DNA from: a virus | IMG/VR virus record: IMGVR_UViG_3300032309_001546 | Location: 1 to 64,000 of that record | Length of the DNA stretch: 64,000 nt | Reading direction: 5' to 3' (one strand) | Part shown: one piece after another, positions 23,618 to 26,310 of the stretch | How the letters are laid out: each line of letters opens with the position of its first letter | Numbering within the stretch: the first letter of the stretch is position 1 | Notes under the pieces: generated by a model | Seen by the model: only the letters and a program-made list of their open reading frames with translations | Database searches by the model: none | What the model was told of the DNA's origin: nothing | Translations under genes and position numbers: made by a program

Positions 23618-24166
23618 ATGTCAAATCAAAATCTTGTAGATATTGCGCTAAAAGAAGTTGGCGTCCGTGAAGTTCCTATCAATAGCAATAGAGGTCCTCG
23701 TGTTGAGGACTTCCAGAAGTACGTCGGTGCTTGGCTTGTAGGTGCCGCCTGGTGCGCTGCCTTTGTGGCTTGGGTCTTCGGGCAGGCCTATCCTGGTGCT
23801 AACCCTGCTGGAAAGCAAAGCTCAGCCGTAATGGGCTTCTGGACGCGTAATGCAGGCCGTGCAGACTTTGTTCGCTTCTTACCTGCTGATGTAAAGTCTG
23901 GCAAGTATAAGATTGAGCCAGGTGATCTATTTGTATTATGTAGTGATCCTGTTAAGGTACCTCTAGTTCAGGTTGGCAGAGTCAAAGCACATACTGGTCA
24001 CATTGGTATCTGTGATGGTGCTATGCTTAGTGCTACTAAGTTCGGCACCGTAGAAGGTAATACGAATGAAGCTGGTAGCCGTGAAGGTGGTGGCGTCTAT
24101 CATCGCTCACGTAGCCTTGATGAAGCTAAGCTTGTAGGATTTGTACGTTATCTAGGTAAGAAGTAA
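23618..24166 (+). CDS. CHAP-domain endolysin
   Basis: Catalytic 'AWCAAFVAWV', 'GHIGI' and 'TVEGNT'; strong AGGAG RBS; no cell-wall-binding domain. Confidence 0.85.
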   Translation: MSNQNLVDIALKEVGVREVPINSNRGPRVEDFQKYVGAWLVGAAWCAAFVAWVFGQAYPGANPAGKQSSAVMGFWTRNAGRADFVRFLPADVKSGKYKIEPGDLFVLCSDPVKVPLVQVGRVKAHTGHIGICDGAMLSATKFGTVEGNTNEAGSREGGGVYHRSRSLDEAKLVGFVRYLGKK

Positions 24167-24465
24167 TGTTCAACCTCTCTGCTATACTTTTTAAAAGATT
24201 TAGTGGAGCTTTTCTTGGGGACAAAAGCAACTACATTAGTCGTAAGCTTGGTTTGGTATACTGGGCCTTGCATACATTAACGTTCTTATATCTTATGAGT
24301 CCTATTGGACAAGCTACTGGTCTCTACATTATTCCTCAGCTAATGGGTGATGATGTATTTACTGCAGCTTTTGTAGGGCTTGTAGGATTATATATGGGTG
24401 CTAATGTTATAGATAGAACACGAGGCACAGATACAAATCTTAAAGAAAATAAAGTGGAGGACTAA
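24166..24465 (+). CDS. Holin-like membrane protein
   Basis: 99 aa, two hydrophobic helices ('SRKLGLVYWALHTLTFLYL', 'FTAAFVGLVGLYMGANV'), charged C-tail, coupled to the endolysin. Confidence 0.6.
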   Translation: MFNLSAILFKRFSGAFLGDKSNYISRKLGLVYWALHTLTFLYLMSPIGQATGLYIIPQLMGDDVFTAAFVGLVGLYMGANVIDRTRGTDTNLKENKVED

Positions 24466-24666
24466 ATGGCCATTGAGAATAATTATGTTCTAGAAAGAAT
24501 TGCAGCTATTGAGAAGCGTATTAATGATCTTCAAAAGATTATTGAGAATATTCCTAAGCTACGCCAGGTTGGCGCGCTAAAAGCAACGATAGAGCAAGAG
24601 CAGAAAGACTTGACTGCTAAAGTATTTGATTTAACTGCTAGAGTTGAAAAACTTGAAAATAAGTAA
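24466..24666 (+). CDS. Small coiled-coil protein
   Basis: 66 aa with heptads; GGAGG RBS; last gene of the + operon. Confidence 0.6.
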   Translation: MAIENNYVLERIAAIEKRINDLQKIIENIPKLRQVGALKATIEQEQKDLTAKVFDLTARVEKLENK

Positions 24667-24735: not shown

Positions 24736-25149
24736 TTAGACGATTGTGATTGTCATTTTTAATGACGAAGTGTCTAGCGATCCGCTTAAAGCATTATCAT
24801 AGTCAATAGCAAAATACTCTGTCGTAATTGGAAATGTTACATCAACAGTCTCGTAAGAAAGTACTTGAGCAGGAGTACCAGTAAGTATTGCTTGCTCAAC
24901 TTCAACCAAAGTAGAGCCAAACCAAAGGTTAAAAACAATACTTTGACTATCGCTATCATAGGCTTGGATTCTTATACTCTTTGAGCGGCCTTGAGATGCA
25001 CTAAGACTACTGCAATTAATTATAGTAGCTTGACTACCATCTCCCGCACCATTTGTAATAAATGGAAGCTCAGCAAGTGAGAAATACTCGCTGTGATGGT
25101 AAGTCAGCATTTCCTTATTAACTTTCTCACCATAAGTTAAGCCAGGCAT
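24736..25149 (-). CDS. Hypothetical protein (beta-rich)
   Basis: 137-aa ORF coupled (TAATG) to the upstream gene. Confidence 0.55.
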   Translation of the reverse strand: MPGLTYGEKVNKEMLTYHHSEYFSLAELPFITNGAGDGSQATIINCSSLSASQGRSKSIRIQAYDSDSQSIVFNLWFGSTLVEVEQAILTGTPAQVLSYETVDVTFPITTEYFAIDYDNALSGSLDTSSLKMTITIV

Positions 25150-25649
25150 TATTCAGACTCCTCAGCTGAAACGTCTTGGCTCTTCTTTGACTTACGCTTC
25201 TTTGGAGCTTCGTCTGCTTCCTTCTCTGTAGCTAACACGTCTTCTTGAGGTTCCTCTAAGACAGTATCAGAAACTTCTTCTTCCGCAGCTATAACCTGAG
25301 CAGCGACAACTGAAGCTTCCTCTGCTTCCTTCTCTGCATGAACCACTGGCTCGTATCTCTCTTCAACTTCAACTTCTCCTGTCTCTCCTAGAATGCTCTT
25401 AGCAAAGTCAAGAGTCTTCTTAAGATTCTTTAGACCCATGAAGTTTAAAAGCATCTGACTCTTCGGAGGTGGCTCTGTAATAAGAGGAACAATCTTTGTG
25501 ATGACAAGACCATTCTTGACGAAACTTGGATTGACATAGAAGCGAAAATCAGTAGCTCCCAGTGCAGAGCCAATGCGAATTGCCTCTTTAACTGTGTTTA
25601 GATTTTCTTTAGAAAGGTCAACTAATTTAATATCCTTATCAGCGCTCAT
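25149..25649 (-). CDS. Hypothetical protein with acidic and Lys-rich disordered tail
   Basis: Start moved to ATG 25649 (MSADK) after an AAGGA RBS. Confidence 0.55.
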   Translation of the reverse strand: MSADKDIKLVDLSKENLNTVKEAIRIGSALGATDFRFYVNPSFVKNGLVITKIVPLITEPPPKSQMLLNFMGLKNLKKTLDFAKSILGETGEVEVEERYEPVVHAEKEAEEASVVAAQVIAAEEEVSDTVLEEPQEDVLATEKEADEAPKKRKSKKSQDVSAEESE

Positions 25650-25742
25650 AGTATTCCTTACAATATTAACAAAATATTTGTGTAATTGCAGCAATAAATA
25701 TTGCTAGTATTGCATGCAATATATTATCTTTATCGCCGTTCA

Positions 25743-26288
25743 TTACTTGGTGATGGTATTGCGTCTACGTAGAAATAGAAAAGTACCAACTATAGCAAAA
25801 AAAGCGAAGACACTAGCAGTATTAGAAACAACTGAACACCCAGCTTCGTCCTTGCTTTTATCGGCAGCGACGGCCGCTCCTGAGCCGCTACCGTCTGTCT
25901 CGGGGAGAGCGGTGTCAGCGCCAGCATCAGCGCCAGAGCCGCTACCATCTACGGAAACAACTTCACCTGAACCAGAACCGCCACCTGTAGGTTCGCCAGA
26001 TCCACAATCAGGATCAACGGTAGCTGAACCCTCGGCACCTGAGCCTGAACCTGAAGTAGCGGTATCGCAAGGAGCAGGAACTGCCTCGGGGACGCAAGCA
26101 AGTAGCTCTGTAGCACAGGAGTCACATGCTGAACCTTCAGCACAGGGAGGGCACTCAGCGCTACCCACAGCAGCACAGACTTCACCAATAGCGCAGTCAG
26201 CAGTTGTGACGCACTCAGTGGCATAGGCAGTTGAAGCTACAAGTAGAGTAGCAAGAAACGAAACTAGGGAAAACTTAATCTTATTCAT
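25743..26288 (-). CDS. Secreted Cys-rich surface protein with a MYXO-CTERM-type sorting signal
   Basis: Signal peptide MNKIKFSLVSFLATLLVASTAYA; Cys-rich domain; GSGSG/DAG linker; C-terminal 'AGCSVV' + TM helix + 'RRR'; GGAG RBS before ATG 26288. Confidence 0.75.
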   Translation of the reverse strand: MNKIKFSLVSFLATLLVASTAYATECVTTADCAIGEVCAAVGSAECPPCAEGSACDSCATELLACVPEAVPAPCDTATSGSGSGAEGSATVDPDCGSGEPTGGGSGSGEVVSVDGSGSGADAGADTALPETDGSGSGAAVAADKSKDEAGCSVVSNTASVFAFFAIVGTFLFLRRRNTITK

Positions 26289-26310
26289 TTTAATCTCCAT
26301 TATCAATTAA

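Follow-up and report, generated by a model that had tools for sequence, protein, structure and literature searches.

The best described system resembling the one discussed here is the MYXO-CTERM route of Myxococcota and Bradymonadales (model TIGR03901.2; enzymes MrtX, MrtC and MrtP), which comprises lipidation, cleavage by MrtX and type II secretion (PMC11980579; 10.1101/2023.06.07.544157). The reference-proteome survey of Haft in 2023 found the myxosortase core only in Myxococcota and Bradymonadales, and reported that the signals take lineage-specific forms, such that one model cannot cover all lineages (10.1101/2023.06.07.544157). TraA of Myxococcus xanthus has a TIGR04201-type Cys repeat and a Cys-containing C-terminal tail (PMC3325183, PMC11980579). 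With regard to phages, T5 Llp and the phage superinfection-exclusion lipoproteins are small Cys-containing envelope proteins of lytic phages (PMC9586334; 10.64898/2026.03.26.714494), and a preprint of October 2026 describes sortase B and PXTG-type substrates in gut huge phages, for which display on the host surface is proposed (10.64898/2026.10.24.761521). In the literature searched on MYXO-CTERM and phages, we found no phage-encoded client and no viral client of Cys-type C-terminal sorting.

The gene that concerns us here, P0001 (25743..26288, minus strand, stop codon included), encodes an exported protein of 181 residues and is in the first 64 kb (64,000 nucleotides, hereafter the window) of a 145,919-bp IMG/VR virus record (84% complete, 41% GC). 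The gene is real, is conserved and is subject to purifying selection. It has 18 known homologues, all on phage-size or short contigs, and of six pairwise comparisons five gave a dN/dS of 0.16-0.20 and the other 0.38. There are four relatives of the phage in IMG/VR, of which three are complete at 174-176 kb, one of these with terminal repeats, and the gene is syntenic in all four. A Shine-Dalgarno sequence, GGAG, can be read at 26295..26298 (minus), six bases upstream of the ATG at 26288, and neither of the alternative starts, 26300 and 26306, is preceded by one.

The phage lineage is uncultured, widespread and lake-dwelling. Sequencing runs of 17 studies contain the stretch; the runs are labelled lake-water or freshwater metagenomes, apart from one of soil and one of wetland, and no RNA run was listed. 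Megablast with 12 kb found no cultured relative. Searches by tblastn of phage and plasmid collections gave no match for P0001, and a search via the gene upstream of it returned only the same four contigs. The DnaE-type polymerase has matches of at most 31% identity, which give no clue to the host. In the case of the primase-helicase there is one relative at 63% identity, besides a 98% copy, the remaining listed matches being at most 31% identical over about half of the query and resembling ordinary DnaG-type primases.

Our best explanation, held tentatively and at close to an even chance, is that P0001 is an accessory envelope protein of the phage and a client of Cys-type sorting by the host, with its head displayed at the surface, where it binds or masks a conserved component. 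Llp would then be a functional analogue with no sequence similarity, differing in that it has an N-terminal lipobox and is in the inner leaflet of the outer membrane, whereas P0001 lacks a lipobox and its anchor would be C-terminal. The substrates of the gut huge phages are likewise phage-encoded and combine a signal peptide with a C-terminal sorting signal of three parts, but that signal is of the Gram-positive type and those phages have their own sortase, whereas the phage of P0001 has a Cys-type signal and no enzyme.

The N-terminus of P0001 has K3 and K5, a 13-residue hydrophobic core and A-Y-A before T-E-C. We judged this by eye, together with an AF2 helix at residues 3-22, to be a Sec signal peptide for signal peptidase I (residues 1-24, 26217..26288, minus; 9 of 24 columns invariant) with predicted cleavage after A-Y-A. 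The same site had been proposed when the gene was first read, and the basic n-region, hydrophobic core and predicted helix bear it out. There is no lipobox, the first Cys being preceded by A-T-E, or by A-A-E or A-T-D, in all members. The predicted signal peptide argues against a virion role for P0001.

The head that follows (residues 25-74, 26067..26216, minus) has nine Cys, in a C-x5-C-x5-C arrangement of the TIGR04201 type and then CPPC-x5-CxxC. It is the most conserved part of the protein, with 27 of 50 columns invariant and a dN/dS of 0.04-0.13 in five of the six comparisons. The head is followed by a disordered acidic stalk of Gly, Ser and Asp (residues 75-147, 25848..26066, minus), which varies in length by indels among the homologues and has one Cys, C95, in a degenerate repeat core DPDCGSGE. 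The AF2 model has pLDDT below 50 over residues 71-154 and a mean pLDDT of 51.7. The mature protein has 11 Cys in 18/18 homologues, nine in the head, C95 in the stalk and C151 in the tail, and these are the same 11 that were first described as a module of eight, two linker Cys and a tail Cys. The number is odd, so one Cys is without a partner.

The tail has three parts, all on the minus strand. The first is Gly150-Cys151-Ser152 (GGG TGT TCA, 25833..25841), a candidate sorting-signal signature from which none of the 18 sequences departs, although the residues on either side and the helix are variable; the variants include GCSTVP, GCSAAP and GCSVVS. The second is a hydrophobic transmembrane segment of 17 residues (157-173, 25770..25820) with no D, E, K, R or P, within an AF2 helix at 157-180. 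The third is the basic cluster Arg174-Arg175-Arg176 (CGT AGA CGC, 25761..25769), in which R174 is invariant and R175 and R176 are present in 17/18. Gly-Cys-Ser is 23 residues before the first Arg, the spacing from Cys to Arg is fixed, there is no indel in the tail in any of the 18 sequences, and the homologues end 0-5 residues past RRR. The tripartite Cys-helix-Arg tail of the sequence-only reading is real and conserved. When ORFs with a Cys followed by a C-terminal helix and basic cluster were sought, P0001 was the only one in the record and its orthologue the only one in each of two complete relatives, so the tail is not a chance pattern.

In common with MYXO-CTERM proteins, P0001 has a signal peptide, then a linker rich in Gly, Ser and Asp, and a tail of the same overall length with an invariant Cys after Gly at the extreme C-terminus, a helix without charge or Pro, and an Arg cluster. 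The differences are that P0001 has a single Cys and not the frequent GCGC, that its helix is rich in Phe and Ile (AT-rich codons) and not in Ala and Leu, and that it is the sole client in the genome of a lytic-type phage that has no sorting enzyme. The identification as a MYXO-CTERM architecture thus stands for the tripartite Cys-helix-Arg tail and for the alignment of the Cys motif, but does not extend to the score. TIGR03901.2 gave 12.8-17.5 bits, listed for 7 of the 18 members, against a cut-off of 20 bits, with a best single-protein E-value of 0.0041. These alignments run from model positions 2-5 to 31-32 of the 34-position model, so that the Cys motif is covered. With TIGR03382 three of the 18 were listed, at 10.3-12.6 bits against a cut-off of 15.85, and a six-frame search of the phage with the MYXO-CTERM models found nothing. 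No member reached a curated cut-off with TIGR03901 or any other CTERM model.

MYXO-CTERM is nevertheless the only CTERM model that aligns over the Cys motif. The PVV-, PGF-, GPS-, PEP- and LPXTG-type models align to the helix and basic end only; in the case of LPXTG (TIGR01167) the scores of 14.1-15.7 bits are below the cut-off of 15.9, only model positions 10-12 to 32-34 align, and there is no LPXTG in the sequence. For JDVT-CTERM, whose marks are a nearly invariant Asp-Pro nine residues after the Cys and an adjacent mrtJ gene, there is no DP in any tail and no model match, and the phage encodes no CPBP protease (PF02517). Synerg-CTERM and CGP-CTERM, defined respectively by an invariant Pro in a Leu-rich helix and by Gly-Pro straight after the Cys, were not matched either, there being no Pro in the helix and the Cys being followed by Ser, and the GVDTG-CTERM model had no match in the phage. 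The C-terminal ends of models for MYXO-CTERM-anchored families align with the stalk and tail of P0001, NF045523 for 17/18 members (E 0.0016) and NF045638 for 10/18. The nearest ESM Atlas clusters for two members are small Myxococcota MYXO-CTERM proteins (PF28081; score 0.84-0.85), which we treat as a lead only.

Two control genomes help in reading these scores. One is of Phycisphaeraceae, reaches 43 bits at most for a myxosortase core, and has 29 six-frame MYXO-CTERM matches of 13-22 bits, nearly all spanning model positions 15-33, that is the helix and Arg only. Plain helix-plus-Arg tails thus reach 13-22 bits in a genome without myxosortase, and the score alone is not specific. In a planctomycete with a myxosortase-core enzyme of 108 bits, the sole tail found by the model, GSCALAP-helix-RRRR, scores 11.5 bits, so a low score does not exclude a true client.

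If P0001 is such a client, the course of events may be as follows. It would be exported by Sec and cut after A-Y-A, and the C-terminal helix would first hold it in the inner membrane with RRR in the cytoplasm. Ten Cys would form disulfides and the eleventh, C151, would stay free. A Cys-dependent CPBP-type protease of the myxosortase family, provided by the host, would recognise the tail, C151 would be lipidated and the helix cut off, and transfer to the outer face of the outer membrane would follow, as for MYXO-CTERM proteins. The conserved head would then be carried on its flexible stalk on infected cells, where most likely it would bind or mask a conserved surface component, and superinfection would be excluded, or progeny would be kept from adsorbing to debris. 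For what follows export we take over, by inference, the steps of MYXO-CTERM; surface masking is conjecture, P0001 having no homologue of known function. It also counts against a sorted client that each phage genome has only one tailed protein, without the modular reuse by which a sorting signal is defined. The decisive genome for modular reuse is however that of the host and not that of the phage.

A C-terminal helix followed by basic residues is a feature of any type I membrane protein, and the main rival explanation, doubtful in our view but to be reckoned with, is that P0001 is just that, an unprocessed bitopic protein whose helix is a permanent anchor in the cytoplasmic membrane. The head and stalk would be in the periplasm, or would pass through the wall of a monoderm, and would act on an envelope component, with a role in immunity or injection block like that of T4 Imm and Sp, or as a sensor for the timing of lysis, and Gly-Cys-Ser would be a juxtamembrane structural or disulfide feature. 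The combination of signal peptide, C-terminal helix and basic cluster is generic, the positive-inside rule explains RRR, all CTERM scores are below cut-off with unrelated tails scoring similarly, the phage encodes no sorting enzyme, and there is only one such protein per phage. A permanent anchor leaves unexplained, however, why three residues, including an unpaired Cys, are invariant and at a fixed distance from a helix that itself varies. It is also at odds with the long disordered Gly/Ser/Asp stalk before the motif: stalks of this kind are typical of surface proteins that undergo sorting, and this one aligns with the ends of families anchored by MYXO-CTERM.

Returning to P0001 as a sorted client, its head gives few leads. 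When the family alignment was run as a profile against 1.84 billion representative proteins, nothing beyond the family itself came up, and neither P0001 nor any of its three neighbours had a significant match in PHROGs, Pfam or PADLOC. Only artificial Gly/Ser linkers match P0001 by sequence in the PDB. With the low-confidence model, Foldseek found nothing in the PDB at E <1, the top rows being small disulfide-rich domains such as Dickkopf, which we do not take as evidence. The TIGR04201 match is a single copy at residues 25-40, present in 14/18 members, which when scored singly gave 7.5-21.4 bits, below the cut-off of 25. Among 185,579 species genomes the sole cellular relative found is a protein of a Phycisphaeraceae MAG (L006:3967-5757, plus), with 36% identity over 90 alignment columns (P0001 residues 25-105) and with four tandem true TIGR04201 copies (62.4 bits) before an NHL-like repeat region; its genome has no myxosortase. 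There being true copies in Phycisphaeraceae, the repeat is no marker for Myxococcota.

The TraA kin-recognition analogy that was drawn from the Cys-rich module is weak and is not supported. TraA has many copies of the Cys repeat in its domain make-up, whereas P0001 has one sub-threshold copy of a repeat that is found also in Planctomycetota, and there is no detectable homology between the two proteins. No PA14-like or variable domain was detected in P0001, and no TraB-like partner was recognised among the neighbouring genes. We also considered and rejected a polymorphic identity receptor like TraA: the head is conserved rather than polymorphic, as seen from its invariant columns and low dN/dS, which makes an identity function of that type unlikely.

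A Myxococcota host, as implied by the sequence-only reading, is not uniquely indicated. Of 201 Planctomycetota genomes sampled, six gave 100-108 bits with NF040914, the myxosortase-core model (cut-off 100 bits), and no control genome out of 14 did so. In the class Phycisphaerae, 201 genomes were sampled and none was over the cut-off. The Planctomycetota enzymes (L053:1138-1827, plus; L054:1120-1836, plus; L055:800-1639, minus) come closest to MrtP and MrtC, without reaching the cut-off of either model. Of five enzyme-bearing Planctomycetota genomes that were checked, four encode large proteins whose C-terminal ends consist of a poly-Gly/Ser linker, then GGC[SA]xxP, a helix and an Arg cluster (tails in L056, L058, L059, L060, L062 and L064), and these tails score 18.9-29 bits with the Cys motif included. 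The pattern G-C-[SA]-x-x-[PS] fits the phage GCSTVP, GCSAAP and GCSVVS, and has the poly-Gly/Ser linker in front; one moderate-GC genome (locus GC 0.52-0.56) has its tail at only 11.5 bits. The bacterial proteins differ in being large, in GC-rich genomes, and in that none is homologous to the phage head, and there was no homologue of P0001 in five Planctomycetota genomes with a myxosortase-core enzyme. With such enzymes and similar tails in some Planctomycetota the signal is not uniquely that of Myxococcota, and on sequence grounds the candidate hosts would be any lineage with a myxosortase-family enzyme.

Codon usage gives a further indication. Bulk phage genes have a GC3 of 0.31, with AGA 44% of Arg codons and ATA 21% of Ile codons, and a block at about 88-110 kb of the record has a GC3 of 0.70, with AGA 5% of Arg and ATA 0% of Ile. 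The phage tRNAs (35195-35268 in the window, 69030-89358 in the record) read AGA, AAA, ACA, CCA and probably AUA (CAU anticodon), and there are also Asn and Tyr tRNAs. This suggests a GC-rich host whose tRNA pool serves the 88-110 kb block, the phage tRNAs serving the rest, P0001 included. It is quite possible, if somewhat short of an even chance, that the lineage infects a GC-rich freshwater bacterium with a myxosortase-family enzyme, of a Myxococcota or Planctomycetota lineage, and that the viral protein is displayed on a C-terminal lipid anchor by way of host lipidation, CPBP cleavage and type II secretion.

The P0001 gene itself is more GC-rich than its neighbours, as had been remarked (52% against about 40%), but this gives no hint of recent capture. 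The GC content is 0.60 and 0.62 at codon positions 1 and 2, where the excess reflects the Gly, Ala, Ser, Cys and Pro codons, and GC3 is 0.335, neighbour-like in a range of 0.28-0.35. We therefore rejected recent capture from a GC-rich host. A separate observation is the mosaic divergence between the orthologues L003:10001-10534 and L004:10001-10540, in which the head has a dS of 0.055 and the tail a dS of 1.03 and dN of 0.35, a difference that suggests that the tail segment has been swapped between phage lineages by recombination.

With regard to gene neighbourhood, P0001 is among the last genes of a long minus-strand block (63733 down to 24736), which includes replication and recombination genes (primase-helicase, DnaE-type polymerase, ribonucleotide reductase, RusA and HNH genes). 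Downstream of P0001 are two minus-strand genes, 25149-25694 and 24736-25149, with no family in Pfam, PHROGs or PADLOC; one product is acidic with a KKRKSKK cluster at its end and the other has 137 residues, and the genes keep their position and order in L003, the one relative inspected. The converging plus-strand block ends at 24666 and has large ORFs not identified with any family, a weak minor-tail match and the lysis genes. The latter are a CHAP-type endolysin (23618..24166, plus), a 99-residue multi-pass membrane protein that is a holin candidate, in the gap before 24466 (plus) and read from the orthologous ORF L003 11767..12066, and a 66-residue coiled-coil protein without a membrane segment (24466..24666, plus).

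The unimolecular spanin of T1 gp11 type has a C-terminal membrane helix, and P0001 could on this basis be a lysis accessory, a tether spanning the periplasm that works with the neighbouring cassette, which is about 1.1 kb away and has no recognisable spanin pair among the genes inspected (window 23618-24666). We consider this improbable: P0001 is on the opposite strand, inside the long leftward replication and recombination block; it has no lipobox, a conserved Glu standing before the first Cys, so that the defining outer-membrane anchor is missing; and a disordered Gly/Ser stalk cannot give the conformational change of a spanin.

Weakest of all, and hardly to be credited, is the reading in which the region is non-coding or the expressed gene is the 170-residue plus ORF at 25714..26226, as the sequence-only reading had allowed it might be: the frame is open in all four sequenced relatives with synonymous and nonsynonymous counts near those of the sense frame, but both properties are predicted by the wobble position that it shares with the minus frame, its product is a low-complexity (PEPEP/SAP) mirror of Gly, Ser and Ala codons, its start is in the intergenic spacer and not conserved (ATG in the window, TTG elsewhere in L003), every gene between 24736 and 63733 is encoded on the minus strand, and it is in the sense frame that we see GGAG, 11 invariant Cys, a canonical signal peptide and a second codon position that has changed less than the first, so that we treat the plus ORF as a shadow frame, not counted as a gene, and the minus strand as the gene.

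What is new here is a calibration of scores that are below threshold, an explanation of the GC content from amino-acid composition, the codon-usage argument on the host as checked for P0001, the argument from the conserved head against a TraA analogy, and the Planctomycetota enzymes and tails. The presence of myxosortase-core enzymes with matching tails in Planctomycetota widens the known range of the system, and indicates that curated cut-offs miss real clients in lineages of other base composition. In the case of the phage, if the tail of P0001 is processed then the phage uses a housekeeping surface-sorting route of its host, one shown experimentally only in 2025, and does so without bringing an enzyme. 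P0001 would then be a Gram-negative counterpart, with a Cys-linked lipid, to the sortase B substrate modules of the gut huge phages, its tail would be a host marker for an uncultured lake phage that can be read from sequence only, and its head would indicate that the phage has to mask some conserved target at the surface.
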